Positions 8,164-33,715 of a stretch of DNA of 64,000 bases are shown piece after piece. Location of the stretch: the NCBI GenBank assembly GCA_044892525.1, contig CM097885.1, positions 20,772,001-20,836,000 of the forward strand. The letters run 5' to 3'. Under the pieces are notes generated by a model. It worked only from the letters and a program-made list of their open reading frames with translations. It was not told where the DNA came from and made no database searches. Position numbers and translations under genes: made by a program. This DNA comes from Schmidtea polychroa. Its lineage: Eukaryota. Position 1 is the first letter of the stretch. Every line of letters begins with the position of its first letter.

Positions 8164-8665
8164 AGTAGAGGGATAGCGGCCCACTAAACCAGCGGCCCTC
8201 TGGGACAAAGACATACCCCTACCCCCCCCCCCCCGCCATTTAAAAATTTTTTTTCAAGGTAAAATTTTAAACAAAGACATATGACTCATCAAGGTCATTG
8301 AAACAAAGGCTATGACTCATTCAAGGTCATATGACTCATCCCATGACTCATTCAAGGTCATATGGCTCATCCGATGGCTCATTCAAGTTCATATGACTCA
8401 TCCAATGACTCATTCAAGGTCACATGACTCATCCGATGATTCATTCAAGGTCATTCTCAAGGTCATATGAGTCATGCGATGAGTCCTGCTAAATTTTTTA
8501 AAATTTAAATTCTCAGAGTTCCCGCCAATGGTTTTTATTATTTAATAGCTCATTCGAAAGGTATTTGAATGGTGAGTATTTGAGCCCATCGAAGGTCTAT
8601 GGAGGTTCAATAACCTTCAAAGTGTTCAATGGTATTGGTTACACTCAACATCTCACAAGGGTATT

Positions 8666-8756
<91 letters not shown>

Positions 8757-9250
8757 GTATTAATATATATACTCCGAGTCTATCCGACAAAATATTTTGT
8801 CCCCCTATGGGTAATGCTCACAATGGTACTGTTCACGCTCAACAACTCGCAAATCTACAAATCAACAAAACATACATCTATTTAAATAATAAAATAATGT
8901 AAAATTAACAAAGGTAAACTAAATATTGATGTACTACTATTCGCAGCATTATTGTTTGAAATTGGTAACGTTGAATTGATTTTCAGATATTCTATTGATC
9001 CTTTGATTGTTTGAATTTCGCTTAATAATAATTCAATCTTTTTAACAAATAATCATGCTTCTTATCAATAATTTTCATATTCTTTTTATTTTTAATAATA
9101 GAGTTATCGAAAACTTCAATATGATCAATCAATTTAATTTTTATATTTTTTATATTTTTATATACAAATGATAGTTCATAGCTGTTTTCTAAATTCTCCA
9201 ATCTTTGAGATATTCTTTTTCCTGGGTGCTTTGACCATTTTGGTTTGTCG
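8164..9250 (+). repeat. Left terminal inverted repeat of Polinton 1
   Basis: Reverse complement of ~23229-24395, including the mirrored ORFs 8565-8885 / 23589-23966 and the DKPKWSKHPGKRISQ segment. Confidence 0.92.
8281..8475. promoter_or_regulatory. ~31-bp tandem array of TGACTCA (AP-1) and TCAAGGTCA (NR5A/ERR-type) motifs in the left TIR
   Basis: Unit approx. TATGACTCATCCNATGACTCATTCAAGGTCA; about 8 TGA(C/G)TCA and 6 TCAAGGTCA. Confidence 0.7.
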
Positions 9251-9348
9251 TCAAACAAAGGTATACTCTGAGTTAATCCGACAAGATATTTTGTCCCCTT
9301 ATGGTTATTGCTCACAATAGTATTGGTTACACTCAACATCTCATAATG

Positions 9349-9433
<85 letters not shown>

Positions 9434-9442
9434 TATTACTTA

Positions 9443-9495
<53 letters not shown>

Positions 9496-9599
9496 ATCAT
9501 TATTATTATCATTATTATTATTTAAAAATGTATAAAATTGAAACTATCACAAGTTTTCAAAATACCAATAAAAATGAAAATGACCATATTAAAAGTAGT

Positions 9600-9990
9600 T
9601 ATCATTACTAATAATAAAAATGTTTAAACTTGAAAATTATCACATGTTTTCAATATAACAATAAAAATGCAAATATTAAAAGATGTTATTATTACGATTA
9701 TTAAAAATGATTAAACTTGAAAACTATTACAAGTTTTATATACACCAATAAAAATGAACACATGAAGTCTAGTTTTTTTTTTTTTTTTTTTTTAAAAAGA
9801 TATATTTTTAATAATATTCATCATTATCATTATCAGCTAATAATATATCATCAATATCAACATCTATATCGATACTATCATCGAAATCTGGGTTGAAATC
9901 TCCACGAAGCGGTCGAACATCATCCAATATTTGATGCTTATCATAGAAATCTTGGCTGAAATCTCCACATAGCTGGTTACAATCAACATA
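9600..9990 (-). repeat. Diverged tandem duplicate of the pPolB acidic 3' end and its downstream region
   Basis: QILDDVRPLRGDFNPDFDDSIDIDVDIDDILLADNDNDEYY* vs pPolB QILEEVGPLCGGFSPDFDDSIDIDVDIDDIILTDDDDDDYY*; downstream non-coding DNA is also repeated. Confidence 0.85.
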
Positions 9991-10011
9991 TCGCAAGTTT
10001 ATTTTTATTAC

Positions 10012-10072
<61 letters not shown>

Positions 10073-10296
10073 ATTATTATTATTATTATTATCATTATTA
10101 TTATTTTTATTAAAAAATGTTTAAACTTGAAAACTATCACATGTTTTCAAAATAATAATAAAAATACACATATTAAAAGATGTTATTATTACGATTATTA
10201 AAAATGATTAAATTTGAAAACTATCCGAAGTTTTTAATACATCAATAAAAAATAAAAATGAACACATTAAAAGTCTAGTTTTTAAAGAAGATATAT

Positions 10297-13151
10297 TTAA
10301 TAATAGTCGTCATCATCATCATCAGTTAATATTATATCGTCTATATCAACATCTATATCGATACTATCATCGAAATCTGGGCTGAAACCTCCACAAAGCG
10401 GTCCAACTTCCTCTAATATTTGATCACTTTCATCGAAATCTGGACTGAAACCTACAGAGAGCGGTCCAACTTCATCCAATACTTGATCATTATCTACAGC
10501 ATCAACCCCAAAATAATGCCTAAATGCGATACTATTATTTTTCCCCACCCATAATCGCTTGTCATCGTTATTTGTCAATGCGATTTTACTATTTTTGATG
10601 GTATATAGCTGGTGGTTCCGCGTCCCTATCCTAGTTTGCGGCACTGCAAATTCTACGTTGTTATTGTAGCAGTCTAAATATGACTGGTGCCCAATCTCTG
10701 TCCCCATTAATTTCACCCCTTTAGCCCTCATAGTATCTTTGACACCTAATAAACTATAGCACTTAGGTCTTAAGAAAACCCATTCCTTATACCCGAGACC
10801 TCTGCTTTCATCTTTAAATTTTCCTATCACAGAATCAAGGTTTCTCGAGTATAAGGGGTGTGCGGGATCATAATTAGAGGTATCTAGAAGATTATCTCTT
10901 ATCATTGCCGGCAAAAGAGTGTCTAGCTTACAGTGCTTAACCTCAAGAAAAAACGAATCAGTATCGCCGGCAACGATATTTATATCACATAAGAATTTGG
11001 ATCTATATTTTGCCAATTCATTATATTGCAGTTGATACATGCGTAGTGTAGACAGGTCTAGCACTGATTGGCCTATGTAGCTAGGCCTGTATAAACATAT
11101 AATATCTTTATTAAGATGAACCGCAATCAGATCATCCGCTATTTTAATTGATTTTTTGAAAGTTTGTTTGGAGGCGTATACAATCATCTTTGCTGATGAA
11201 TTGCATAGCCTCAAATTCATACGTTTTTTCAAATTCTCTACTGATTTACCATAGAGACTATTATTGAATAATTTATATAGATCTCTATACAGTTCACATG
11301 TTGATTTTGAACGTAAATTAGTATTTCGATCTATATATGTTTTGAAAATTGTTGATTGTTTAAATTTAATTGCTCTATGTACATGCTCAACTTCCTCACC
11401 TAATTTTATATACAGCTTGAGAAGCCGCCAATGAACATGGTTCTTCTTAGGCCAATGCGTGAGCATAAGCTTCTCAACTTTTGAATTAGGTGGACACATT
11501 TTTTCCGGAGCAAGCGGAAAATCATTCAAATATTCATGCACACGATTAGGGATATTGATGTCTTCTTCCATAGTATAACCATATGGAAGGTTTTCAATAT
11601 CTGCATTCACGCATTCACTCAACACATCATTCAGATTTTCATACACCCAAACAAAGTCACCATACGGAAGATTTTGGCTAAGAGCCCAACCATATAAATT
11701 ATTTATATCTATATACAAAAGTTCTGTATCTTCAGAACTTGCTACATAATGTTTGTTAACAAATGTTAACCCACCCCGTATTCCACCTTCGTAGAAATTA
11801 TACATTTCCATATCCTGTAGAACTTCTATAGGTTCCTGTAATGTCATGAGCGCTGACGCCCATGACATACCTGGAATTCCATAGAAGTTTAAAGGTTCAA
11901 GGCCGTTATAAGCAATTGCTTTGGCACGGAATTGCTGAAAATAATCTGCCAAGAGGAATACGTCCAATTTAAGGTACGTTAACATATAGTCTAACATTGT
12001 TTCGCAATTTTGCTGAACCCAGATTTCTTGGGCGATAGCATTTTCTTCATTAGATACAGAACTCCAAATCGGAGGTAATTCATGAGTAGATTCAAGAATT
12101 TCGAGTGATGTTGCAAAGTCGTAAGGAAATATGCCCTTTGCTCTCACAATACTACCATCAAAAACAGAAGAAGTTAAAGGTAAATCTGAAAGAGTTTTAA
12201 CTGCCTTTGCTAACGATGAGTTAACAAATTGCATACTGTCGATAAAACGAACAGTCAATTTGTTAATATTTACAATCAAGGATATAAATTTTTCAGTGGT
12301 GGTTGGAACGATATTTAATTTCCAAGATGGAAAATCATTCAAACCATACTTTAAAATGTGATGTAAGTCATACCCCTTCAAATTATGAAAGACAATGGGT
12401 AACTGTTTGTTTATTCTCCTAGAAACATTGCAATTTCTACAGGCAGCACCAAGATACTTACCTGTGAAATGATCATGGTCCTTAACCTTATCTTTTATAA
12501 AATGTTTACAGAGATAACAAGTCCTACAGTTGTTGAACTCCAGTTCCTCATTGAAAGACAGAGTATTAATGAATTTTCTACCATGAATTTCATAATACGG
12601 GAGGACAATTGTGACAGCAATTTCCTCCACCTTCTTTAAAATTTCAAAAACACATTCCAAGCCTATAAAATTAAAATATGATGTTGTGTTAGTGTAATTG
12701 TTAATTAATAATAGACCTGCTGTTATTGGTTTGTGCATTTGGTGATGATTTATATTCCCAGGTAAAATAGCCTCAAAGTCCGCGTATATTACGAACGGTG
12801 GGGTAATCATCTTTGAATAATCTTTAAACGTTAAATTTTTATTTTTAGGGAGCGTGTAAAGGGTGGTTCCTATTTGATTTTTAGCGCACAATGCAACATG
12901 TACCTTAAAGGTTTTGAATTCTTTAATTTCTCCATCTTTTTCAATTTGAATAAGAACTGTAAACTGGACTTTTACAGATCCCATCTTTTCAATTTCCACA
13001 TTAATTTTATTTATAATTTTATCCGTAAAGGAGATTTGAATTAAGTTTTTATGTTCTAAATCAAATCGAATATTTTTACGGGAACCCTTTAAATCTATCT
13101 CTATTTCAGGTTCATCATTTATATCTATTTGAATATTTTCTATATTGTTTT
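10297..13151 (-). CDS. Protein-primed family B DNA polymerase (pPolB) with EndoVII-like insert; 5' exon not located, N-terminal region short
   Basis: YADFEA, CYLC..DHDHFTGKYLGAACRNCN, FHNLKGYDLH, YIDINNLYG, KLFNNSLYGK, GDTDS; the poly-I start of the ORF track is an (ATT)n tract ending in a likely acceptor AG at 13152-13153. Confidence 0.93.
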
Positions 13152-13152
13152 C

Positions 13153-13208
<56 letters not shown>

Positions 13209-13345
13209 TAATAATTGCCCCAAATAAATGTAGCTTGCAGTGAGCATGCATCTACATCTCTTCTCATATAATAATAATAATAATTATTCCAATAAAAGTA
13301 GTTTGCAGTGAGCATGCATCTACATCTCTTCTCAAATAAAAATAC

Positions 13346-14031
<686 letters not shown>

Positions 14032-14217
14032 TATGACAGATTTGTTACATGTATTAATTTGTTAAAATATTATTATCAATTTATGATTTATAAAGATTTA
14101 ATTACTTATCAAATAAAGTTTTTGAATAATTAATCATTTAAATTAATACATTTAACGAAGTGTTTTAGTAAAAATTTGTTAAATATTATAAAAAATAAAT
14201 TAAAAAAATAAAAAATG

Positions 14218-14851
14218 CTAACATTTCCATTCCATATCGGAATCAGAATCATCTTCTAATTCATCCCGCATAGGGGCATCTCCAATATCAGTGGGGGCAT
14301 CAGAGTCATCAACTGCATTTGCAATAAATGTGGAGGCATCAGATTCATTGACGACATTTCCAATATCAGTGGGGGCATCAGAATCATCAACTGCATTTGC
14401 AATAAATGTGGATGCATCAGATTCATTGACGACATTTCCAATATCTGTGGGGGCATCATCGACGATATTATTAACTACTCCTTCATTTGTAACTACATTT
14501 GTTTCATTATCTGAAGGTTCTTCTTAAATATATTTAATAAATAAAATAAAACTTACCACTGTCATCACTAATAATGATTTCTTCATCATCGGTTATAATA
14601 ATAAGTTCATTATCTTCCATAAGATTAATTTCATCTAAATATTAATAATTTAATAAATAAATAAATAATTTAATTTACCATCATCATCGTCACTAATAAT
14701 AATTGGGGCATCGTCCATATTATTTTCTGCTTCGGTAACTTCGTACCATAAATTAGCTAAATGTGAATAAAATAATAATAAATAAAAGAAAAAAAAATTT
14801 ACCGTTTTCTCCAGCCAAAATTGCTCTTAAAATATTATTTTGATTATTCAT
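14218..14851 (-). CDS. Spliced 169-aa acidic protein with several SIM-like motifs; exons 14851-14803, 14756-14679, 14634-14557, 14522-14218
   Basis: Three phase-1 GT-AG introns (46, 44, 34 bp) give an open frame MNNQNNILRAILAGENANLWYEV...PIIISDDDDDEINLMEDNELIIITDDEEIIISDDSEE...DSDMEWKC*. Confidence 0.85.
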
Positions 14852-15279
14852 TTTGAAATTGTTGATAATTGTTTTGTTTGCAAATTTGTAAATAAATATT
14901 TTTTAAAAGTGACAAATTTGGAATTTGTGAATGTTTATAAAGAAAATGAAAATTCCCTGTCCCAGCCAATCAGAATTTAGACACACACATATATAAACTA
15001 AATATTTTACTCTCTTGACCAATCACATTGCGTCTACACATGCCTTCTTATTTTTCATGTGACTGTCTTTATTAGTCACGACTTTGTTAAGATGCACTGT
15101 GCATGCTCCAGGCATGTGATGTCTTTATGACAAAAATAATAATAATATTTTTCAAAATAATAATAAATTTAAATAAAAATACTAATTTTTAATCAAATAA
15201 TAATATTAATAATATTATTATTAATAATAATAATAACAATAATAACAATATTAATAATAATACTAATAATAATAATAAT

Positions 15280-15372
<93 letters not shown>

Positions 15373-15410
15373 TTGAAATAAAAGATAAATAAAGCAAATA
15401 ATTGCAAGAA

Positions 15411-15458
<48 letters not shown>

Positions 15459-15613
15459 TATAATAATAAGAACAACAAAGGATACAATATACATTTATTA
15501 AACATCAAATTTTTTATACAACAAATTTTTTATACAACAATTTTTTATACAACAATTTTTTATACAATAATAATAATAATAATAAGAACAGCAAAGGATA
15601 CAATATACATTTA

Positions 15614-15998
15614 TTAACCATCAAATATTTTATACAACAACCAAGCTAAACAATGTTGACCACATGTTTGGGTCAATCGATTTTGAAACATAGTTTTATT
15701 ATACATAATAGGTTTCCCCATTGTTTGCAGTTTTGATATCAATAAAGCCGGGTAATAAAAACCCATAGGATCGAATACGAATATATTACTAGGTTTCACA
15801 CATATAGCTATCCAATGTTCTCCACCAAGATGAGACGATTGAGTATTGATGATTATGGCTTGATTATTTCTCAAATATGGAATTTTATCGAGAGGAAAAA
15901 CTCCTACAAATTCATTTCCCAATATCTGTTTTCCAATTCGATTAACCTGAACAGAACTACTTTAATAAATTAAATAGTATCAAAAAAACTTACTCCAT
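15614..15998 (-). CDS. Adenain-like cysteine protease (116 aa; 5-nt first exon, intron 15960-15993)
   Basis: ATGGA|gtaagt...attaaag|TAGT gives MDSSVQVNRIGKQILGNEFVGVFPLD; catalytic motifs GEHW, FDPMG, QTCGQHC. Confidence 0.92.
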
Positions 15999-17234: not shown

Positions 17235-17599
17235 TTTGCAAATATAGTTCCATGTCCTTTCATTCGTTTGTTTATACGTGATATTCCATGTCTTTTACGT
17301 TTTGGAACAGGAGCTGGAGCTGGAGATTTTTCTTTTTGAAACATACCTGCAACCCCGGGTAAAACTTTCCCTAATTCAGCTAAAGCATTTGTTTTTGGAG
17401 ATGGTAATATTTTCTGTTCATTCATAATAACATCTTTTGCAGTTTTCATACCAAAACTACCAATACGTTTAAGAATAGGCAATGCAAATCTACCAATTGT
17501 TCTCAACCATCCCGATCCGTACTGTTTACCAATAAAATATGGTAATTCACCGCCAGATTGGCTACCACTATACATACTAATAATATCAGAATTCGGCAT
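17231..17599 (-). CDS. Small virion-core / membrane-active precursor (QxGxG plus amphipathic helix, basic tail)
   Basis: QSGGELPYFIGKQYGSGWLRTIGRFALPILKRIG; lies between the minor and major capsid genes. Confidence 0.7.
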   Translation of the reverse strand: MPNSDIISMYSGSQSGGELPYFIGKQYGSGWLRTIGRFALPILKRIGSFGMKTAKDVIMNEQKILPSPKTNALAELGKVLPGVAGMFQKEKSPAPAPVPKRKRHGISRINKRMKGHGTIFAK

Positions 17600-18659
17600 C
17601 TACTTTACGAAAATGTAATGTCAAATGGGTTTTTGAACCTTTTAGAAAGTTTATAAGTTTTCCACTATCATCACGAATATTTATTTCTATATTGTTTATA
17701 CATGAACTTGCTATTGGTAAATACATGGGATTATCGATATTTATATTGACAACTTCATCATGTTCATATTTTCCAATCCATACCGATTTCAAAAGAGGAA
17801 CACTGGAATCACCAACAATTATGGGTTCGATAATGTTAGTATATATGAAAATTTGTTGATGATGTTCTAGTATTCTTGGTTTGCGTATACCAGTCGATTT
17901 TTCTCGATATTTTTGCTTATATAATCCAAGTGAATTTGCAAAATTTTTATCAAATGTAACTTCGCAAATATCATCATTCAAAATGAAGGTAAACATCAAA
18001 TCTTTCACAATTTCCAAATTTTTAAATATGTGTGAACAATTGAACTTTAAATATTTAAGTAATATATCAAGTTTATCAAAATATAATTCATCAGCAAAGG
18101 TGAATGATTCTTCAACTTCATCATTATACGACACAGATATTTTGATTTCTTCTTTCACTATACTGTTTGCTTCAAATAGATTAAAACGTAATAAATACTC
18201 GGTCTCCGTAATAATATTTTTCAACTTATTGCAACCCATTCGTTTGGCATCTTCAATAGTTTCGAATGTTATTGTAAATGGTTTAAAATCACAACTGATA
18301 TTTAATCCATCCTTGTAAAACATATAGCAATGCGAATCTAAAATTTGATTCGGAATATGATATGTTTTATCATAATTACTGATAACAAAGATACCGCTAC
18401 ATGTTTTCACAATATTCCTTTTGAAATCAATCTTACATTGACTATAAAATGGGAATGTATTGTACACGAATGTAAAATCTTGCAGTGCAACTTCCCAGTC
18501 ACCATTTAAAGAAATCGGATTCTGGAGATTGACCATGAATTTACTGGCTTGATTGTCTGGATGAATTAATGGGCAACTATTGCTCGGCAAAATAGTATAA
18601 AAATTCACTTTACTAGATCTTTTGCTGATATCCATGACGGGTTTTGATAACCATGCCAT
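17586..18659 (-). CDS. Polinton minor capsid protein (penton); exact start uncertain
   Basis: FYTILPSNS...PDNQASKF..L..PISLNGDWEVAL; FIYTNIIEP..VGD..VPLL; IEINIRDDSGKLINF...LTLHFRK. Confidence 0.9.
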   Translation of the reverse strand: MAWLSKPVMDISKRSSKVNFYTILPSNSCPLIHPDNQASKFMVNLQNPISLNGDWEVALQDFTFVYNTFPFYSQCKIDFKRNIVKTCSGIFVISNYDKTYHIPNQILDSHCYMFYKDGLNISCDFKPFTITFETIEDAKRMGCNKLKNIITETEYLLRFNLFEANSIVKEEIKISVSYNDEVEESFTFADELYFDKLDILLKYLKFNCSHIFKNLEIVKDLMFTFILNDDICEVTFDKNFANSLGLYKQKYREKSTGIRKPRILEHHQQIFIYTNIIEPIIVGDSSVPLLKSVWIGKYEHDEVVNINIDNPMYLPIASSCINNIEINIRDDSGKLINFLKGSKTHLTLHFRKVDAEF

Positions 18660-19243
18660 TTGACATAGTATTGTTTATCCTTGCCGACCTTTTTAGTTTT
18701 CAATATTTTTTGAATTCTAAATACTTTTGGGGGAGGAATGACTTGTAATTCCTGCTCATAAAATTTCCCTTGTACAATATTATTACCATTATCTTTGATG
18801 ACATACATTACAGGATTCTGTTTAGTATTTATTTTTGAAATTACAAAGACTTCATCACTCCAATTTGTATCAAAATTTTTAATAAATGGTGATGCACTAA
18901 TTTTACTAATTCTAACATGGTCACCAACTTTATATTTAGGTTTTGCAATTTTTACAGAATTTTTAGAAGTCAATGATGTTTTTGATGTAATATCAACCGG
19001 TCTCAATCCATTCAGTCCTCGATGTGATGAATGATTATAACTTGTTATTATTTTCGGTAATACATTTACCCATTTTTTATTAACTTGATGCACGAACAAT
19101 TTCTTTAATCTATCTCTCAATGTTCGATTAAATCTTTCGACATGGGCAGCTTTGTATTGAGAATGTACCGAGTAGTGATTTATTTTCAGTTTATCGAGAA
19201 TTTGCTTAACTTTGCTATTGTAGAATTCTTTATCTAAAATAAT

Positions 19244-19341
<98 letters not shown>

Positions 19342-19597
19342 CTAAATCTGTTTGCAAGTTATTAGGATGTCCATCTTTAAATAAAATATTAATTACCTTG
19401 GACATTTCTTCTGCAGATTTTGCCTTGACTGGTATTGCTCGTGCAAACCTGCTGTATACATTAATACATGTTAAAATATATTTATTCCCATTGTTAATTT
19501 TCGAATAAGGTATCATCTCCATCAAATCCATTTGCCATAAATCGTCAATACCAAATGTTTTATATTTAATGTCGGGCAATGAAGGATTAGCACCCAT
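18605..19597 (-). CDS. Retroviral-type DDE integrase with C-terminal chromodomain; microsatellite-filled intron 19234-19341
   Basis: WQMDL, LQTD, HVERFNRTL, YYVKWHGY..SWI; the poly-I run is bounded by GT...AG (108 bp). Confidence 0.93.
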
Positions 19598-19600
19598 TGT

Positions 19601-20134
19601 TTATGATTGATTTCCTACAACTCCACCTAATAATGATAATACCAGAGGTATCAATGCACCAATAAATCCACCTTGTTGTTTATATATAATTTTCCTCATT
19701 TGCTTACGATTTTTATTATTTACTAATGATAACAAAGGTTTCCTATGTTTGCTCAATAAATGCTTTTTTGATTTACTGATTTTAATTTTGCCTTTGACTA
19801 CTTTAAGTATAATATTGAGTAAATCATCGACAACAAAATTTGGGAATGATTGCAATATATTCATTCTTTTCATACTCGGGGCCTTTAACAATGCATTAAA
19901 AAATGGAAAACTGCGATGATTTTTAACTACTTTTTTACCGGTTTTACGGGTTTTACGGGTTTTACGTTTAGGTTTAGGATTTTTCGAAATAAGATTCATT
20001 GCAGAGAAATTTTCAGTTACAAGTTTTTTAGATGGTGTATAACTAGTTGTTGGTGGAACTTTTGGAATTTTAATACTCTTTCTAATACTTTTTCTTAATT
20101 TCCTAATATTTGTCACCCTTGCTTTTAGAAACAT
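19601..20134 (-). CDS. Basic core-protein precursor with C-terminal GG^F hydrophobic tail
   Basis: K/R-rich (KRKTRKTRKTGKK); ends QQGGFIGALIPLVLSLLGG, resembling adenain-cleaved core precursors. Confidence 0.7.
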   Translation of the reverse strand: MFLKARVTNIRKLRKSIRKSIKIPKVPPTTSYTPSKKLVTENFSAMNLISKNPKPKRKTRKTRKTGKKVVKNHRSFPFFNALLKAPSMKRMNILQSFPNFVVDDLLNIILKVVKGKIKISKSKKHLLSKHRKPLLSLVNNKNRKQMRKIIYKQQGGFIGALIPLVLSLLGGVVGNQS

Positions 20135-20152: not shown

Positions 20153-20779
20153 TCAACTTTGTTTATAAACCATGGCACCTTTTGGGTTGAAAATATCTGT
20201 TTTTACTCGTAAATCATCGGGACATTGTTGTGTGAAATCAAGAAATATATATCCATGAGGTATTTTTGTAGCGTCTTGAAATGCACTGATAAGAAAATTA
20301 CGATTGTTAGGGTATGCTTGACGTGCAAGAAAATCAATCACTGTTGCATCTCTAGGATTCTTGAAAATAACTAAATATTGTACATTTAAATTACGTGTTC
20401 GATGTGCCCCACCTTGATGAAATAGATTTTGTGTTATGAAAATAACTGTTACACCGACATGTCTGCTGATCTTTGTAAATAAATTATTAAAATCTTTTTC
20501 TTTATTAGCTTCTTGATACAAATCATCGATAATAATGACATCGCCTTTCTTTAATCGGCTGGACCAGTTTTTATCGAATCCCTTTACTATTTTCATGTTT
20601 TTTAATTTACAGAAACTTGATTGAGTTAATCCATGTTCTTCATCAGCACCCCTATGCCAATAAATCCTGTTGAATTTTGATTTGAATAAATTTGATTTTA
20701 GTAATTTACAAACAAATAATGTTTTTCCACTACCACTCGGACCAACGATTTGGTATACTGCATCATTTCTTAATTCCAT
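20153..20779 (-). CDS. A32/FtsK-like genome packaging ATPase
   Basis: Walker A GPSGSGKT, Walker B IIIDD, SRH..VTVIFITQN; likely start is MELRND at 20779. Confidence 0.93.
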   Translation of the reverse strand: MELRNDAVYQIVGPSGSGKTLFVCKLLKSNLFKSKFNRIYWHRGADEEHGLTQSSFCKLKNMKIVKGFDKNWSSRLKKGDVIIIDDLYQEANKEKDFNNLFTKISRHVGVTVIFITQNLFHQGGAHRTRNLNVQYLVIFKNPRDATVIDFLARQAYPNNRNFLISAFQDATKIPHGYIFLDFTQQCPDDLRVKTDIFNPKGAMVYKQS

Positions 20780-20882
20780 TTCAAAACTTTTATAAATATA
20801 TGTGTATTTGTTTATATTCGATGATTTAATGAACTCGTGCTCAATTTGTATATAAAGACTAATTTTCATAAATGATTTAATA

Positions 20883-21320
20883 ATGTTAGCAAATATAAAT
20901 TATCGAGGAAATTTTGATGTATCGAATATGAGGTTCCCACCAGAGAAACCCCAGCAAATTATCGATAGAAGCGGGAAATATCCGATAATATTTTTCAAGA
21001 CTGGTAAATGCAGAATCATGGGATGTAAGAAACCTTTGGATATTAATAAATTACAATATCGAATAAATAATATTACAATCCAATCAATTACCGTTACTAT
21101 GGATATGGGACATAGTATCAATCTATATAACATGTCGAAAAAATGTGATTGTATGTTTGAACCGGAATTGTTTCCGGCACTAAGACTATTAAAATATAAC
21201 CCTATATGTGTCAACGTGTTTGCTAGTGGAAAGGTTGTCATGTTGGGGTTGAGAAATTTGGAGTATAGAGAATTTGTTGATAATGTTCGAAATGAGATAA
21301 TTTCATTGGTCGATTTCTAA
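20883..21320 (+). CDS. TATA-binding protein (TBP)-like protein, 145 aa
   Basis: IFFKTGKCRIMGCK / ITIQSITVTMDMGHSINL / FEPELFPAL / VNVFASGKVVMLG align with TBP LIFASGKMVVTGAK / FKIQNIVGSCDVKFPIRL / YEPELFPGL / LLIFVSGKIVLTG. Confidence 0.9.
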   Translation: MLANINYRGNFDVSNMRFPPEKPQQIIDRSGKYPIIFFKTGKCRIMGCKKPLDINKLQYRINNITIQSITVTMDMGHSINLYNMSKKCDCMFEPELFPALRLLKYNPICVNVFASGKVVMLGLRNLEYREFVDNVRNEIISLVDF

Positions 21321-21379: not shown

Positions 21380-21789
21380 ATGTACAAAATACCAAGCGCA
21401 GCAAATCTAATGAAAGATATTGACGACTATGGTAAATTTAAAATTTTATTTTCACATTTTTTATATTTATTATTTTAGAAAAATATTTAGAAGTAATGCT
21501 GAATAGGATAAAATATTATTATCCTCAAATTGCAGAAATAATCAAGGATAGAGAACCAGAAATCATTCCAGATCTCATATTCTATTCCACTCAAATTAGA
21601 ATCATGGAGGTATTCCATCAATTCCTATGGGATATCAAGATTAATAGAACCATGAAACAAATGGAGCCGGAGTACCAATGTATGTTCGGATGTTCATGTT
21701 GTGCCGATCGATATCGGCGATATGTCGAATGGGAGTTAGTGAAAACTCTGAGAAGGTTTCACTACTCCCGGATTGTTGATAAATATTAA
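21380..21789 (+). CDS. Spliced 120-aa hypothetical protein with Cys cluster (intron 21432-21478)
   Basis: ATG at 21380; G|gtaaat...ttttag|AA joins in frame to ORF 21496-21789; QCMFGCSCCAD. Confidence 0.75.
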
Positions 21790-22090
21790 TAAATGTATTT
21801 TTGTTTCTATTGCGTTTTTATATTTGAAATAGTAATAATAATAGTAATAATATAAATAATAATAGTAATAATAAAATAAATAGTAATAATAATAATAGAA
21901 ATAATATAAATAGTAATAATAATAATAATATAAATAATAATAGTAATAATAATATAAATAGTAATAATAATAATAGAAATAATAGAAATAGTAATAATAA
22001 TAATAATAATAATAGAAATAATAATAGAAATAGTAATAATAAAACATTAATAATAATATGTCACATTAATAGAACATAAATGCAGCATTA

Positions 22091-23091: not shown

Positions 23092-23502
23092 ATGAAAACT
23101 ATATTCATATTGCTAATTGTTATAACGAGTGTGTGCTCACACAATGCAACAATAACAGTGGAGTCTTTTAATAAATCGATATGTGTTTGTCCGAATACAG
23201 CCAAGTTGATGGATATTTTATATATTCTCGATAAACCAAAATGGTCAAAGCATCCAGGAAAAAGAATATCTCAAAGATTGGAGAATTTAGAAAACAGTTA
23301 TGAACTATCATTTGAATATATACAAAATATAAAAATTACATTGATTGATCATATTAAAGTTTTCAATAACTCTATTGTTGAAAATAAAAAGAATATGAAA
23401 ATTATTGATAAGAAGCATGATTATTTGTTAAAAAAGATTGAATTATTATTAAGAGAAATTCAAACAATCAAAGGATCAATAGAATATCTGAAAATCAATT
23501 GA
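23092..23502 (+). CDS. Secreted coiled-coil protein, 136 aa; 3' part lies inside the right TIR
   Basis: Signal-peptide-like MKTIFILLIVITSVCS; heptad-like C-terminus; upstream GATTGG and TATAAA. Confidence 0.7.
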   Translation: MKTIFILLIVITSVCSHNATITVESFNKSICVCPNTAKLMDILYILDKPKWSKHPGKRISQRLENLENSYELSFEYIQNIKITLIDHIKVFNNSIVENKKNMKIIDKKHDYLLKKIELLLREIQTIKGSIEYLKIN

Positions 23503-23717
23503 ACGTTACTAATTTCAAACAATAATGCTGCGAATAATAGTTCATCAATATTTAGTTTACCTTTGTTAATTTTACATTATTTTATTGTTTAAATAAATGT
23601 ATGTTTGTTGATTTGTTGATTTGCGAGTTGTTGAGCGTGAGCAGTACCCTTGTGAGCATTACCCATAGAGGGAACAAAATATTTTGTCGGATAGACTCGG
23701 AGTATATAGATTATTAC

Positions 23718-23810
<93 letters not shown>

Positions 23811-24395
23811 TAATAATAATAATAATAAAAATAATAATATTAATAATAATAATAATAGTAATAATAATACCCTTGTGAGATGTTGAATGTAACCAATACC
23901 ATTGAACACTTTGAAGGTTATTGAACCTCCATAGACCTTCGATGGGCTCAAATACTCACCATTCAAATACCTTTCGAATGAGCTATTAAATAATAAAAAC
24001 CATTGGCGGGAACTCTGAGAATTTAAATTTTAAAAAATTTAGCATGACTCATCGCATGACTCATATGACCTTGAGAATGACCTTGAATGAGTCATCGGAT
24101 GAGGCATGTGACCTTGAATGAGTCACCGGATGAGTCATATGACCTTTAATGAGTCATCGGGCGAGTTATATGACCTTGAATGAGTCATTGGATGAGGCAT
24201 ATGCCTTGAAGAGTCATGGCATGAGTCACATGACCTTTAATGAGTCATCGGATTAGTCGTGGTCTTTGTTTCAATGACCTTGATGAGTTCTATATCTTTG
24301 TTTAAATTTTGACCTTGAAAAAAAAATTTAAAATGGAGGGGGGTATGTCTTTGTCCCAGAGGGCCGCTGGTTTAGTGGGCCGCTATCCCTCTACT
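23229..24395 (-). repeat. Right terminal inverted repeat of Polinton 1
   Basis: Mirror of 8164-9250, with a longer TGAGTCA/TGACCTTGA array at ~24044-24290. Confidence 0.92.
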
Positions 24396-31396: not shown

Positions 31397-33715
31397 GATA
31401 AGAAATGAGAGAAAAAAAGGCTTGTTAAAGTTCGTATTGAAGTGAGAATGAGCGATTTTAGGTCTAAATATTTTATTTAATAAACACTGCGAAAGTGGCT
31501 TACGTAATTATTTATTTGAATTATATTTGTATAAATGAGTGAATGAATGAACAAAACAAATTACTGGATTCGAAGTATTACATATACGAATAAGTTGAAG
31601 ATAACTTTATTTTTCATATTTAAATATATTCATATAGACTACGGTGGATCATCACGCCTCAGGGGTGGGACATGTTAGCAATTATCAATTATTCCACATA
31701 CATTCTTTTTAATATAATATGCTTATTCACGACTAAATATAACAACGTACATACAGCAATTTCACCGACCGTTATTTTTGCATAATGTCAATACTGATTA
31801 TCGAAGTTTGACAGCTACTTTAAAGGGGCCTGGTGGAGCATATGAATTTTGAAAGTACTACGGTGGAGCATATAACTTTTGAAATACTACGATGACTCAT
31901 GGTATAAAGAAGGTCGGGAAACACTGATATAAACAGGCGCGTATTCTCTTACACCTATGTAAGTTTACTATAGGCGTGTTAATTTTCAAATTGCCTCCGC
32001 TCCCTCAACTATTAAAATGTTAATATTAAATAAAAAATATATACTAAATAAAATGTGTGAGTTTTTGTCATTAACAAAATTGACAATTAATAAAACTCTA
32101 TTTAGGCTAATATAAAAAGTTAATAACAAAAAACAAATGAATAATTATACACAATTACAGTTCACAAAATTTCTATAATAACAATTTTTTCTTTTATCAT
32201 AAATATTTATTATTAGGATAACATCGTTTTGTGAATCACTAAATAACTCCATAAACTTTATTTAAGCAATTATGCACTAAATTTTAATGTTTTCTAATTG
32301 TTTGTTATTTAAACAGTTTCCATCTTCTATTTAAAATATTTTTATATAATAAATATTTTTAAAATTTTAAAATTCCAAAAATTTACAATTAAAATCTTTT
32401 AGATTCTTCCAGCTTCTTCATATTTATTATTTCCTGTTTAAATTAAAATTTACTGTCAAAAGATCCCATATAATGTCAATTTGTGTATTTTTTATTATAG
32501 AAATTGTTTATAATTATCCATTTGCTTTTTGTCATTAACTTTTTCTATTAGCCTAAACAAAGTTTTATTAATTGTCAAATTTGTTAGTAAAAGTGTGGCA
32601 CTGTCTCACAATGTCCTTAACTGATGATTGTGAGACGGATGGATTCATTTTCCTGACTGACAACAATGTCCGATTTACTCCAAAATGATGATCTGTGTGG
32701 AAATTCCGTATTAGATCCATGTTTTCATCAACCTTACTTGCACTTAAAGCAGTCTCTACATTAGGCTCAAAACCGTTGTATCTGTTTTCAGTTGTAACAA
32801 CATCGCATTCGGCACCTTCATCATTTCGTCTGCCTTGTTTAACTCCGTCGGCACTAACTCCACCGTGACCTTCAGACTGTATTCATTTATAATCGACTTG
32901 AACATCTCAAGGCGACGTCGGACCAATAATTCGGATTTGGTCTTGAATCATCATTGAGTACCGCATAAAAACAGCTATACAATTAAGTCAAACCACTTGG
33001 AACTTCCAATCAATGAGTATTTCTATTTCTTTCAATGTAGAATCTAGGTCAACGGGATTTATGTGAGCTGCATGGTCTGACTTGCGCAACCAAGTTAATA
33101 ATCACGCTTTCAGGTCAGTTTTTCATATTTTCTTACACATTTTTATGGCTGCAATGCAAAAAACTCACTTTAATTTACAAAAAAATCACAAATTTAAATT
33201 TAAATTTGTTTCATTTTTAATGAGCTATAAATCACATACTATAAATCCACCGTAGTACTTTCAAAATTCATATGCTCCACCAGGCCCCTTTAAAGTAGCT
33301 GTCAAACTTCGATAATCAGTATTGACATTATGCAAAAATAACGGTCGGTGAAATTGCTGTATGTACGTTGTTATATTTAGTCGTGAATAAGCATATTATA
33401 TTAAAAAGAATGTATGTGGAATAATTGATAATTGCTGACATGTCCCACCCCTGAAGCGTGATGATCCACCGTGATTTATATGAATATATTTAAATATGAA
33501 AAATAAAGTTATCTTCAACTTATTTGTATATGTAATACTTCGAATCCAGTAATTTGTTTTGTTCATTCATTCACTCATTTATACAAATATTATTCAATTA
33601 AATAATTACGTAAGCCATTTTCGCAGTGTTTATTAAATAAAATATTTAGACTTAAAATCGCTCATTCTCACTTCAATACGAACTTTAACAAGCCTTTTTT
33701 CTCTCATTTCTTATC
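31397..33715. repeat. ~470-bp inverted duplication (31397-31867 and 33246-33715) around a ~1.4-kb spacer
   Basis: GATAAGAAATGAGAG...GTACTACGGTGGA is mirrored by TCCACCGTAGTAC...CTCTCATTTCTTATC with few mismatches. Confidence 0.9.
32070..32590. mobile_element. Decayed MITE-like element with ~80-bp imperfect inverted repeats
   Basis: TAACAAAATTGACAATTAATAAAACT..TAGGCTAATA mirrored by TATTAGCCTA..AGTTTTATTAATTGTCAAATTTGTTA. Confidence 0.55.

Follow-up and report, generated by a model that had tools for sequence, protein, structure and literature searches.

Several groups of eukaryotic double-stranded DNA viruses are believed to descend from Polintons (Mavericks), yet to our knowledge next to nothing has been learned of how these elements regulate their genes. 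The closest described systems are viruses and cells with additional or diverged TATA-binding proteins (TBPs). Large DNA viruses that have TBP-like proteins encode their own RNA polymerase. ASFV B263R is an example of such a virus-encoded TBP homologue (PMC5825884), a likeness to the gene described here, whereas in the Polinton that carries this gene no polymerase subunit gene was found. The late TBP mimics of beta- and gamma-herpesviruses (KSHV ORF24, HCMV UL87) are described as part of a six-member viral complex that targets a non-canonical TATA-like box (TATT) on late promoters, to which host RNA polymerase II is recruited (PMC12529657, PMC8360532, PMC6541308). The same logic would apply to our element if the early-to-late reading proposed below holds, but the protein reported here is a small, bona fide member of PF00352 and its candidate box is ATAAAC[A/G]. 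A further comparison is with TRF2/TLF, diverged TBP paralogues described as directing specialised promoter sets (PMC3142196).

A TBP-like gene has appeared on a map. In the adintovirus paper of Starrett et al. (2021; PMC8502044), the legend of Fig. 5 labels as 'TBP' a MELD-virus gene 'similar to TATA binding proteins'. That virus is a midsize linear double-stranded DNA virus with an adintovirus-like PolB. The legend offers the label alone, and the text that accompanies it contains no analysis of architecture, conservation, promoter or function. In the literature covered, this map label is the only prior mention of a TBP gene in such an element.

Here we describe a locus in a 64,000-nucleotide stretch of the Schmidtea polychroa genome (the window), in which an intact ATG-to-stop ORF of 145 amino acids lies within a Polinton of about 16 kb. 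We find that this ORF is a genuine miniature TBP under selection (hereafter mini-TBP) and a stable gene of one Polinton (Maverick) lineage. We also describe, as a new feature, an ATAAAC[A/G] box upstream of the packaging ATPase, the capsid gene and other virion genes, which is a candidate target of this protein.

The element and the neighbourhood of its TBP gene

Terminal inverted repeats (TIRs) surround the element, as expected of a Polinton of 15-20 kb (Table 1). Their arms, at 8328-9163 and 23310-24203, are about 0.9 kb long with 93-97% complementarity and enclose about 16 kb, and on the outside they run on into 31-bp tandem arrays. The window copy of PolB has no Pfam match at E<=1, and a PolB profile gave 0 matches among PDB sequences; the polymerase is recognised through its aligned homologues, four of five of which (37-50% identical to the window ORF) match PF03175 DNA_pol_B_2, with a best E of 4.7e-32. 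The expected virion module, a double jelly-roll capsid protein with an A32/FtsK-type ATPase, is also present. The AF2 model of the capsid protein (pLDDT 65.8, pTM 0.70) retrieved the capsid proteins of SGIV (iridovirus), PBCV-1, Sputnik and mavirus in Foldseek at E values of 1e-13 to 1e-10. Matches of the integrase had significant E values but stayed below the Pfam cut-offs (rve 24.9 bits against 32.6, E 2.4e-5; Chromo 21.4 bits against 25.1, E 2.4e-4), rve_3 gave 15.9 bits, and the translation shows this ORF to be broken by an in-frame poly-Ile microsatellite. The 357-amino-acid ORF is possibly a minor capsid protein. A reading of the sequence also brought out a protease-like fragment of 50 amino acids at 15614-15766; otherwise no minor capsid protein or maturation protease was identified. 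Pfam has no family for the 402-, 122-, 357-, 177-, 144-, 103- and 97-amino-acid ORFs of the element, an ESM Atlas search with the 144-amino-acid ORF gave no lead (best score 0.77), and the ATPase as a single query had no match in IMG/VR.

Table 1. Coordinates of the features of the element in the window
Feature	Position	Strand	Basis or remark
Left TIR	8269..9163		inverted-repeat pairs, end comparison; TAT microsatellites present
31-bp tandem array (x4.6) in left TIR	8312-8454		tandem-repeat search
PolB ORF	10297..13251	-	identity of 34-52% with ORFs of 6 metagenome loci that carry TBP
Double jelly-roll major capsid protein, 402 aa	16026..17234	-	AF2 and Foldseek
Conserved virion-block ORF, 122 aa	17231..17599	-	homologues in 7 metagenome loci
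ATAAACA box	17269..17275	-	41 nt upstream of capsid gene
Conserved virion-block ORF, 357 aa	17586..18659	-	10 metagenome loci have homologues; L045 accounts for two of 11 tblastn rows
ATAAACA box	17693..17699	-	100 nt upstream of 122-aa ORF
Probable retroviral-type integrase with chromodomain	18605..19597	-	rve and Chromo matches; homologues in 15 loci
ATAAACA box	18672..18678	-	19 nt upstream of 357-aa ORF
Second ATAAACA copy	19598-19604	-	abuts integrase ATG; motif scan
Basic ORF, 177 aa, hydrophobic C-terminus, conserved in block	19601..20134	-	translation, homologue search
ATAAACA box	19677..19683	-	86 nt upstream of integrase ATG
A32-type genome-packaging ATPase	20153..20779	-	Pox_A32, E 4.1e-7, 30.2 bits against cut-off of 22.8
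ATAAACA box in last ATPase codons	20160..20166	-	32 nt upstream of next ORF
Divergent ATPase-TBP promoter region	20780..20882		families A-D share only the 10-mer 20808-20817
ATATAAACAA box, candidate late core-promoter element	20808..20817	-	36 nt upstream of ATPase Met31
Canonical TATA box (TATATAAAG)	20849..20857	+	34 nt upstream of TBP ATG
Mini-TBP	20883..21320	+	Pfam, PDB, AF2, Foldseek, hhalign, VIA
Right-arm gene, probably two exons	21380..21789	+	predicted GT..AG intron 21431-21478; frame continuous across predicted splice
Right-arm ORF, 144 aa	22202..22636	+	CCAAT and TATAAAAA promoter; 21 metagenome loci have homologues; L063 accounts for two of 22 tblastn rows
Right-arm ORF, 103 aa	22675..22986	-	CCAAT and TATAAATA promoter; ORF list, promoter strings
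Right-arm ORF, 136 aa	23092..23502	+	CCAAT and TATAAATG promoter; ORF list, promoter strings
Right TIR	23310..24258		inverted-repeat pairs
31-bp tandem array (x5.9) in right TIR	24077-24258		tandem-repeat search

The mini-TBP gene and the ATPase gene diverge from a short shared region. The ATPase probably starts at Met31 (position 20779), since the equivalent methionine is used in the sister families, which leaves a gap of 103 bp to the TBP gene; the longest ORF reaches 20869 and leaves 13 bp. A preliminary description of this DNA had placed the TBP gene head-to-head with the virion cluster, and the divergent neighbour proves to be this A32-type ATPase, at the head of a cluster that includes the double jelly-roll capsid gene. 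The arrangement recurs elsewhere: more than 20 metagenome loci have TBP and the ATPase side by side, and in six of them PolB is present too, at 34-52% identity, so that synteny around TBP is kept across PolB divergence down to 34%. Metagenomic mini-TBP genes share ATPase, integrase, capsid and PolB neighbours, and the family of the 144-amino-acid right-arm ORF is a frequent neighbour of TBP. The earlier statement that TBP is not a canonical Polinton gene thus needs a qualification for this lineage, in which TBP is a conserved gene with a fixed neighbourhood, invariably adjacent to the virion and packaging genes.

A miniature TBP and its relatives

Sequence and structure comparisons place the ORF among the TBPs, far above chance. 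Against Pfam PF00352 it scores 57.4 bits (cut-off 22.9; E 1.3e-15) in two stretches, the best being amino acids 64-125. TBPs account for 35 of its 37 PDB sequence matches (best 4.8e-10), with a bit score of only about 42 against any solved TBP. In the structure comparisons its identity to solved TBPs is only 22-27%. With the AF2 model (pLDDT 96.3, pTM 0.85), all 44 Foldseek matches at E<=1e-3 were TBPs. In VIA, TBPs or fusions containing one filled the first 38 ranks (Z 11.2-13.3, rmsd 2.3-2.7 Å, 140-145 residues aligned), and the entry ranked directly below them had a Z of 6.5; in the VIA superposition, model residues 1-145 correspond to residues 66-240 of yeast TBP, the 145 residues spanning a TBP core of 175. 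An hhalign comparison of the mini-TBP family with two-repeat TBPs gave a probability of 99.5 and an E of 6.6e-23.

In its predicted structure, mini-TBP is a complete TBP saddle with a canonical repeat 2 and a repeat 1 that keeps its strands without both helices. Repeat 2 (amino acids 61-145) is complete, and DSSP assigns to it, in the AF2 model, strands at 62-74, 90-92, 99-102, 109-113 and 117-123 and helices at 81-85 and 129-142. Repeat 1 (amino acids 1-60) has modelled strands at 2-10, 25-28, 35-38 and 42-48 and one helical turn of three residues. In the model, strands in both halves form the continuous two-repeat saddle sheet, while the two convex-side helices per repeat (order S1-H1-S2-S3-S4-S5-H2) are found in repeat 2 and not in repeat 1, where hhalign places a 13-column gap at the expected position of helix 2. 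Mini-TBP shares with cellular TBP (PF00352) the two-repeat saddle, the E-P-E-L-F-P stirrup and three of the four intercalating phenylalanines. It differs in having 145 residues against a core of about 175-180, in lacking the repeat-1 helices, in a variable first phenylalanine position, in an invariant arginine and methionine (R44, M46) on the repeat-1 strands, and in forming a separate clade encoded by a mobile, virus-like element.

Across 58 aligned family members, F38, C43, R44, M46, P94, E95, F97, N111 and F113 are invariant. The C-terminal stirrup retains the TFIIB-contact residues (E-x-E-L in E-P-E-L-F), with E93 in 57/58, P94 in 58/58, E95 in 58/58, L96 in 50/58 and F97 in 58/58. Three of the four DNA-kinking phenylalanines are kept (F38, F97 and F113), and hhalign pairs F38 with an invariant phenylalanine of the two-repeat TBPs. 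The first position, I26 in mini-TBP as placed by the register of an invariant proline (P23+3) and not by residue-level superposition, varies across the family (Y11 F9 C9 I7 L6 V5 S4 K4 H3). Conservation is highest in the C-terminal stirrup and in the strands of the two halves: it is 0.72 for the repeat-1 strands, 0.67 for the repeat-2 strands and 0.43 for the helices. The polar or charged invariant residues on the repeat-1 strands (R44, M46, N4 and N6) suggest altered specificity and not plain TATA binding.

The gene is abundant and old. In the genome of origin, 150 of 150 scored copies, drawn from 4161 first-look candidates, are intact at 98-100% identity, so that at least 150 intact copies exist, and three further diverged sister families are present. 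Database relatives that align along the full length number 107, all with a precomputed PF00352 match; the full-length metagenomic relatives (more than 100) are 36-62% identical, and 110 clusters at 50% identity reach E<=1e-10 with mini-TBP. Between families, pN is 0.24-0.30 against a saturated pS of 0.58-0.76, and dN/dS is 0.15-0.33 with dS saturated; within a family, copies differ by 1-5 synonymous and 3-11 non-synonymous substitutions (ratio 0.37-0.78), too few to show selection. In a tree, 36 sampled mini-TBPs form one clade, and the branch between it and 14 two-repeat TBPs has 100/100 support. The intronless two-repeat TBP-like ORFs of the host genome, L115 and L118 (157 and 131 Pfam bits), which have full repeats with helices, unlike mini-TBP, group with the two-repeat TBPs and apart from the mini-TBPs, and a host TBP exon scores 152 bits against human TBP. 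A recent capture of the host TBP was considered and rejected, as the tree and the bit scores place the mini-TBP clade far from the host's own TBP. A TBP alignment searched against IMG/VR found one distant locus only (L031), whose TBP-like ORF has 182 amino acids at 25% identity and is long enough for two full repeats.

These results bear out the reading of the ORF in the preliminary description. Its alignment to both TBP repeats, within the TIRs, is upheld by Pfam, Foldseek and VIA together; the nearly complete repeat 2 with its EPELFP stirrup is seen in the DSSP elements and in the conservation of the stirrup, and the absence of most of both repeat-1 helices in the strand-only DSSP assignment and the hhalign gap. 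The claim that three of the four phenylalanines are kept extends to all 58 members. That description had also named three outcomes that would count against it, and none came about: the structure searches (Foldseek, VIA) return the TBP fold, sister copies and distant relatives carry the gene, and between-family dN/dS is not near 1. In the phylogeny the mini-TBPs stand as a clade of their own, apart from the host TBP-like ORFs.

Two promoter classes and the ATAAAC[A/G] box

The genes of the element fall into two groups by their promoters: CCAAT boxes with canonical TATAWAWR boxes precede TBP and the other right-arm accessory genes, and ATAAAC[A/G] precedes the virion genes. Upstream of TBP, TATAWAWR occurs in 25, CCAAT in 13 and the ATAAAC[A/G] box in 1 of 56 dereplicated loci. 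Upstream of the ATPase, the box lies at -31 to -52, typically about 35 nt from the start, in 23 of 26 dereplicated lineages, a count that scored the window copy and L043 as box-less from an upstream in-frame ATG, both having the box at -36 when the Met31-equivalent start is used; L101, also without the box, is a doubtful ATPase match at 24%. The top 7-mer at -60 to -20 of the ATPase is ATAAACA itself (21/26 dereplicated loci, 23 with ATAAACG), compared with at most 8/26 for the best unrelated 7-mer and a background of 2.1% of windows. ATPase identity among the box-bearing lineages is 34-77%. The box is mostly TATAAACA at the ATPase, the capsid gene and the intervening virion-block genes.

Its placement follows the virion genes. 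In all 11 dereplicated loci, ATAAAC is found in the 100 nt that precede the capsid gene. In the window, six virion-block genes in succession have a box at most 100 nt upstream, and these boxes make up seven of the ten minus-strand sites (binomial P 1.2e-8, with relatedness ignored). Of 43 box sites in the four in-genome families, 41 are oriented like the genes, with spacing that is the same from family to family, and all four have a box at -32 to -36 of the first cluster gene, the ATPase. The box at the ATPase 3' end is preserved in 27/27 loci, in differing reading frames or in non-coding DNA. The box is a signal at the level of the DNA. Two other origins for it were rejected: it is no by-product of a conserved C-terminal peptide, since its codons are TAT-AAA-CAA in some loci and ATA-AAC in others, and elsewhere it spans a stop codon or is not coding at all, and it is not solely a poly(A) signal, being kept upstream of the first cluster gene, where there is no same-strand gene upstream.

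None of the five TBP-less relatives (four of them distinct; PolB or ATPase 24-30% identical) has a box within 100 nt of the ATPase, a link between box and TBP gene that is confounded by shared descent, with these five, four distinct, as the only controls. All five CATAAAC lineages have a residue other than valine at strand position 119, where 18 of 20 other lineages keep valine, although the covarying lineages are one clade and this covariation is likewise confounded by shared descent.

A proposed early-to-late switch and its alternatives

We propose that mini-TBP is an early, host-transcribed factor that turns on the late virion promoters, with DNA and TFIIB binding predicted from its sequence, a reading that we regard as evenly poised between right and wrong. 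The protein would be made early, from a host-type promoter read by host TBP/TFIID, and would then bind the variant boxes and nucleate RNA polymerase II initiation at the virion genes. Host TFIIB would be recruited through the retained E-P-E-L-F stirrup. If repeats and box halves pair as in cellular TBP, the 5' TATA half would be contacted by repeat 2 and the AAC(A) half by the altered repeat 1, with its invariant R44 and M46 and with N4/N6. The repeat-1 helices of cellular TBP are a surface for several partners, and without them mini-TBP would be neither dependent on nor restrained by partners that use it. Since no polymerase subunit was found in the element, mini-TBP must work with host RNA polymerase II.

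Some observations sit less easily with this proposal. The box is 0-7 nt from the next ATG in one sub-lineage, and 7 and 19 nt from two ATGs in the window; boxes this close to an ATG do not fit a simple geometry of box, 30 nt, start site and ATG, and spacings of 31-37 nt would imply leaders just a few nucleotides long. A complex prediction that paired mini-TBP with residues 100-301, the core of an intronless TFIIB-family ORF of the host, speaks neither for nor against TFIIB binding (score 0.00, in a run without controls); the canonical host TFIIB gene is split by introns.

Mini-TBP could instead be a real DNA-binding TBP that acts elsewhere, while the boxes are read by host factors such as a forkhead protein, host TBP on a weak TATA or the cleavage and polyadenylation machinery; the viral protein might then boost the element's canonical TATA promoters, or replace host TBP where TFIID is limiting, as in the germline or early embryo. 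ATAAACA fits what we take to be the forkhead consensus, RYAAAYA, and NATAAA presumably resembles minor poly(A)-signal hexamers. Many boxes do lie at the 3' ends of upstream genes and some abut the next ATG, and the canonical TATA at the right-arm genes, TBP included, could be bound by a TBP homologue too. Host TBP may also tolerate TATAAAC, as the title of PDB 1QN3 names wild-type TBP on a C(-25) TATA variant. Yet with TBP divergent, the box of the first cluster gene follows no gene whose transcript it could end, and it still stands at -32 to -36 in four in-genome families, its tight spacing from an ATPase ATG whose product has diverged to 34-77% identity suits a core-promoter element better than an enhancer site, the five TBP-less relatives are without it, and R44, M46, N4 and N6 of the repeat-1 strands suggest altered specificity. 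On this balance we consider a host reading of the boxes unlikely. The passenger explanation, in which a captured fragment of host TBP is in neutral decay and intact only through the youth of its copies, draws on within-family copies that are too alike to show selection. It is hardly credible beside full-length conservation down to 36% identity in more than 100 relatives, the between-family dN/dS, the synteny kept across PolB divergence and a single deep clade distant from the host's own TBP; conservation, dN/dS, synteny and phylogeny all contradict a passenger pseudogene.

Two further explanations accept the fold and give it another use. As a decoy or dominant-negative, mini-TBP would soak up TFIIB by its stirrup, or occupy host TATA boxes without a full pre-initiation complex, and so dampen transcription of the host or of competing elements. 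The strongly conserved stirrup and the missing repeat-1 helices would suit such a role, but a pure TFIIB sponge needs no DNA-binding sheet, and here the strands are the best-conserved parts (repeat 1 highest), the three phenylalanines are invariant, and the gene is tied by position to the promoter region of the virion genes; with no result of the analysis speaking for it, we hold a decoy to be quite improbable. More improbable again is a DNA bender outside transcription, which would kink AT-rich DNA at the element ends or elsewhere for protein-primed replication, integration or packaging. TBP-fold domains do occur outside transcription (in VIA, a DNA-glycosylase N-terminal domain has a Z of 4.9, and rolling-circle Rep proteins have 5.6-6.5), and the packaging ATPase adjoins the mini-TBP gene. 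An architectural protein, however, would not need the E-P-E-L-F-P TFIIB-contact motif, which is almost unchanged, the TIRs have other motifs (the 31-bp array) and not the ATAAACA box, and the distribution of the boxes follows the starts of genes. The preliminary description had offered two functions, an initiation factor for viral promoters and a TFIIB decoy; the data favour the former, with the ATAAAC[A/G] box as the candidate target.

Taken to its full extent, the early-to-late reading would give a whole lineage of animal-associated Polintons its own transcription programme, complete in itself and run in two stages, with the smallest natural TBP known at its centre. This 145-amino-acid TBP, half of it without helices and made from a host-type CCAAT/TATA promoter, would redirect host RNA polymerase II to the cognate, ATAAACA-marked virion genes, where TATA would be read by the canonical repeat and AAC by the remodelled one. 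The pair would be a natural orthogonal TBP and box, and a counterpart, in the realm of Polintons, adenoviruses and giant viruses, of the late-gene TBP mimics of herpesviruses. We put this fuller picture forward tentatively, leaning slightly against it as a whole.

By retaining its DNA-binding sheet and TFIIB stirrup while doing without helices in one repeat, this natural TBP shows which surfaces can be dispensed with. Should mini-TBP read ATAAACA and not TATAAAA, it would provide an orthogonal TBP/promoter pair for engineering. If the proposal is true, an element-encoded basal factor and two promoter classes would amount to a virus-style early/late programme run on host RNA polymerase II, and the Polinton programme would be directly testable with one small protein and one box of 7-8 bp. 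Candidate copies of the element family run into the thousands in this 781 Mb genome, and the regulation of the element therefore bears on how such expansions happen.

Identity and anatomy of the mini-TBP

The mini-TBP, a 145-aa protein encoded in the right arm of the Schmidtea polychroa Polinton, matches the Pfam TBP model (PF00352) at 57.4 bits against a threshold of 22.9 (E 1.3e-15), and a sequence search of the PDB matched 35 TBP sequences, the best at 4.8e-10. An AlphaFold2 model with a 58-sequence alignment as input (pLDDT 96.3, pTM 0.85) had TBPs as all 44 of its Foldseek matches at E<=1e-3. In the VIA structural comparison, the 38 top-ranked entries were TBPs or TBP fusions (Z 11.2-13.3, rmsd 2.3-2.7 A over 140-145 aligned residues), the best fold after them reached only Z 6.5, and model residues 1-145 spanned yeast TBP 66-240. 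By profile and predicted fold the protein is a TBP family member, as the preliminary description had proposed for this intact ORF inside the terminal inverted repeats.

The mini-TBP departs from a textbook TBP in two respects, having helices in one repeat instead of both and three of the four phenylalanines. In the model, repeat 2 (residues 61-145) is canonical, with a strand, a helix, four strands and a long helix, while the first half consists of strands alone (2-10, 25-28, 35-38, 42-48). Profile-profile alignment to eleven TBPs with two repeats (probability 99.5, E 6.6e-23, residues 31-143) shows a 13-column gap at the place of repeat-1 helix 2; together with the strand-only first half, this indicates a full saddle from which one repeat's convex helices have been deleted. 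The near-complete second repeat and the helix-stripped first repeat described earlier are thus both borne out. Among 58 family members the stirrup E93-P94-E95-L96-F97 is nearly invariant, as are C43, R44, M46, C109 and N111. Three of the four intercalating phenylalanines had been thought kept, and F38, F97 and F113 are indeed invariant in 58/58; the fourth position, I26 in the window by a sequence register counted from invariant P23 rather than by superposition, varies across the family. Strands are the most conserved structural class (0.72 in half 1, 0.67 in half 2) and helices the least (0.43).

Features of the Polinton and its surroundings (window positions)
Feature	Position	Strand	Description
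Polinton, ~16 kb	arms 8328-9163, 23310-24203		inverted repeats, 93-97% complementary
31-bp tandem arrays	8312-8454, 24077-24258		4.6 and 5.9 copies, into which the arms run outward
Protein-primed PolB		-	PF03175 matched by 4/5 aligned homologues, best E 4.7e-32; window copy itself below Pfam significance
50-aa ORF	15614-15766	-	possible cysteine protease remnant or exon
Double jelly-roll capsid protein		-	AlphaFold model (pLDDT 65.8); Foldseek matches to iridovirus, chlorovirus, Sputnik and mavirus capsid proteins, E about 1e-13
Two conserved ORFs		-	virion block; no assigned role
rve/chromo integrase		-	E-values significant yet under Pfam cut-offs
Basic 177-aa ORF		-	
A32-type packaging ATPase		-	
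mini-TBP TATA box	20849-20857		TATATAAAG
mini-TBP ORF	20883-21320	+	intact, 145 aa, within the inverted-repeat-bounded element
Right arm			mini-TBP and four more small genes
Gene just downstream of mini-TBP	21380-21789		apparent 48-nt GT..AG intron, 21431-21478
TAT/TTA/ATT microsatellites	8662-10112, 13300-15500, 18605-19597, 21736-22047		expanded in element; 18605-19597 includes an in-frame poly-Ile run inside the integrase ORF
Second inverted-repeat pair	31413-33700		455-nt arms, 98% complementary, 1378 nt apart; unrelated to the Polinton

The mini-TBP lies head-to-head with the virion cluster, as first described, being divergent from the packaging ATPase, the cluster's first gene; the upstream region between them is 103 bp when the ATPase start is placed at window Met31, because sister families start there. 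Long microsatellite arrays fill the PolB-capsid gap. Splicing of the apparent intron would join a short first exon (ATG 21380) in frame to a 97-aa ORF; if real, this would be a spliceosomal intron within a Polinton gene. The 31-bp unit at both termini holds TGACTCA twice and TCAAGGTCA once, which we take to resemble AP-1 and nuclear-receptor half-sites, and the arrays may be enhancers that depend on host factors. The second inverted-repeat pair points to a further mobile element, lying downstream of this one.

Copies, relatives and selection

A search of the 781 Mb assembly with the mini-TBP protein returned 4161 first-look candidates, of which the 150 scored were all stop-free and 98-100% identical; the Pfam TBP model returned 2998, with 150 scored. 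Judged from these first-look candidates, with 150 scored per search, the element family is extremely abundant and, at about 16 kb each, could amount to several percent of the assembly. The Pfam-model search also yielded three further Polinton families, whose mini-TBPs are 170, 156 and 154 aa long. Nei-Gojobori pairs among the four families gave pN 0.24-0.30 against pS 0.58-0.76, and between-family dN/dS was 0.15-0.33 where dS was computable, within-family counts being too small for inference. Elsewhere, 107 protein relatives of 96-232 aa (most 144-190) were found at 36-97% identity, mostly near full length, and an exhaustive search gave 745 cluster representatives at E<=1e-3, of which 110 reach E<=1e-10. 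Relatives were encoded on 102 metagenome stretches, 80 of them kept for analysis; the gene adjoins the ATPase in more than 20 kept loci, and six metagenome loci also carry PolB (34-52% identity).

In a maximum-likelihood tree of 50 proteins, 36/36 mini-TBPs split on a long branch from 14 two-repeat TBPs, two intronless host TBP-like ORFs included, with 100/100 support. This branch rules out a recent copy of host TBP, and a passenger ORF is ruled out by the 150/150 intact copies, the between-family dN/dS and the conserved ATPase linkage. The checks proposed in the preliminary description thus found a TBP fold, copies in related Polintons, a dN/dS of 0.15-0.33 and a position apart from two-repeat TBPs. 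The gene is old, monophyletic and passed down with this Polinton lineage, and almost certainly encodes a genuine TBP homologue that the element keeps under selection. Four much longer relatives (P0161, P0169, P0220 and P0224, 173-365 aa) have low-complexity extensions and, between the halves, a large insert; they retain the signature strands and the stirrup and group in a supported subclade.

Proteins of the virion block, from capsid to ATPase, share 81-95% identity between the window and sister families B and D, whereas the mini-TBP is only 54-60% and PolB 53-75% identical; family C, at 57-86%, is more distant across the whole element. Polinton families within one genome seem to have undergone modular exchange, both virion-block flanks being swapped by recombination, and one breakpoint seems to lie within the TBP-ATPase intergenic region.

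The Pfam-model search also located the host's own multi-exon TBP (one exon matching the human TBP core at 152 bits) and paralogues near C1:41.96-42.00 Mb. The intronless two-repeat ORFs at loci L115 (1216-1860, minus; 214 aa) and L118 (1195-1803, minus; 202 aa) score 157 and 131 bits and group with two-repeat TBPs. A further set of at least 13 ORFs without introns, 301-310 aa long and clustered in two regions (C3:38.2-39.1 Mb and C1:23.85-24.19 Mb; one copy is locus L157, 1572-2477, minus), combines a TFIIB zinc ribbon with a single TFIIB cyclin repeat (Pfam scores 41.7 and 40.9 bits). Here a basal transcription factor has expanded in this lineage; no Polinton link was seen in 5 kb around one copy.

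A conserved box at the virion genes

When the TBP-ATPase intergenic regions of the four in-genome families are aligned, one block alone is conserved, 32-36 nt before the ATPase start codon; read on the strand of that gene it is ATATAAACAA. When all 7-mers at -60..-20 of the ATPase were counted without bias in 26 dereplicated loci, ATAAACA ranked top, with 21 loci (23 with ATAAACG), against at most 8 for any unrelated 7-mer and a background of 2.1% of equal-sized windows; two of the three loci lacking the box reflect start-codon choice in scoring and one a doubtful ATPase match. The preceding base is T in 17, C in 5 and G in 1 of the 23. The box is kept in GC-richer contigs and down to 34-39% ATPase identity, and the 100 nt preceding the capsid gene contain ATAAAC in 11/11 dereplicated loci. 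In the window element 10 of 11 sites are on the minus strand, 7 of these 10 in the 100 nt ahead of six consecutive virion-block genes (binomial P 1.2e-8, ignoring composition and shared ancestry). The positions repeat in three sister elements, and over the four elements together 41 of 43 sites are on the coding strand. Five distant IMG/VR relatives (ATPase or PolB 24-30% identical) had neither a box within 100 nt of the ATPase (0/5) nor a TBP detected by profile; co-occurrence and covariation statistics ignore shared ancestry. Upstream of the mini-TBP gene in 56 dereplicated loci, the box occurs once, TATAWAWR in 25 and CCAAT in 13, and the window mini-TBP and three other right-arm ORFs examined carry CCAAT/ATTGG together with TATAAA-type boxes at a distance of 34-41 nt from the start codon.

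The box also lies at the ATPase gene's 3' end in 27/27 loci, as TAT-AAA-CAA, as ATA-AAC, spanning the stop codon or beyond it. Because these contexts vary, the box is a nucleic-acid signal, and a peptide motif is ruled out by the differing frames and the stop-spanning and post-stop positions. ATAAACA resembles minor poly(A)-signal hexamers, but a role as poly(A) signal alone is weakened because the cluster's first gene keeps the box with no same-strand gene further upstream; a dual role is possible. Counting against recognition by the mini-TBP, ATAAACA also fits the forkhead consensus, or may suit ordinary TBP, the title of one PDB entry among the structure matches describing wild-type TBP crystallised on a C(-25) TATA variant. 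Some boxes are 0-19 nt from the next ATG, too close if the box sits 30 nt before the start site, and spacings of 31-37 nt would imply very short leaders.

A candidate two-step transcription programme

We regard the chances as evenly balanced that the mini-TBP drives a two-step programme. The ordinary TATA/CCAAT machinery of the host would transcribe the right-arm genes, the mini-TBP included; its product would then bind the variant box and initiate virion-block transcription, bringing in TFIIB through its conserved stirrup. Several cellular TBP partners use the repeat-1 helices, and the stirrup contacts TFIIB; such helix partners would be neither needed by the mini-TBP nor able to restrain it. 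By analogy with cellular TBP, repeat 2 may lie over the 5' half of the box, TATA, while the AAC(A) half may be covered by the remodelled repeat 1 with its invariant Arg44 and Met46. In five C-initial-box lineages two repeat-2 positions differ, strand position 119 being non-Val and position 72 polar or basic, and Val119 is kept in 18/20 other lineages. The position-119 covariation is a lead that fits repeat 2 on the 5' half, but the five lineages form one clade, so it may be a single event. The earlier suggestion of an initiation factor for viral promoters is thus partly supported and has gained a candidate target box at the virion genes and a separate promoter class for the mini-TBP; the function itself we infer.

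Virus-encoded TBP homologues and mimics are described from large DNA viruses and herpesviruses. In the text of the Polinton/Maverick literature on TBP, TATA or promoters, the one relevant item found was the Fig. 5 legend of Starrett et al. 2021 (PMC8502044), which labels a TBP gene that may or may not be of the mini type, section 3.4 of that text giving no analysis; PMC10675990 also mentions TBP, in connection with mirusvirus-like repeats rather than Polintons. Nothing turned up in this literature on a helix-less TBP architecture, on the ATAAACA box or on lineage-wide conservation of the gene. Elements of this kind have thus been credited with a TBP gene once in print, and the architecture, conservation and box are apparently new. 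We know of no account of gene regulation for Polintons as a group, and the arrangement proposed here would be a surprising, compact viral transcription system that is directly testable.
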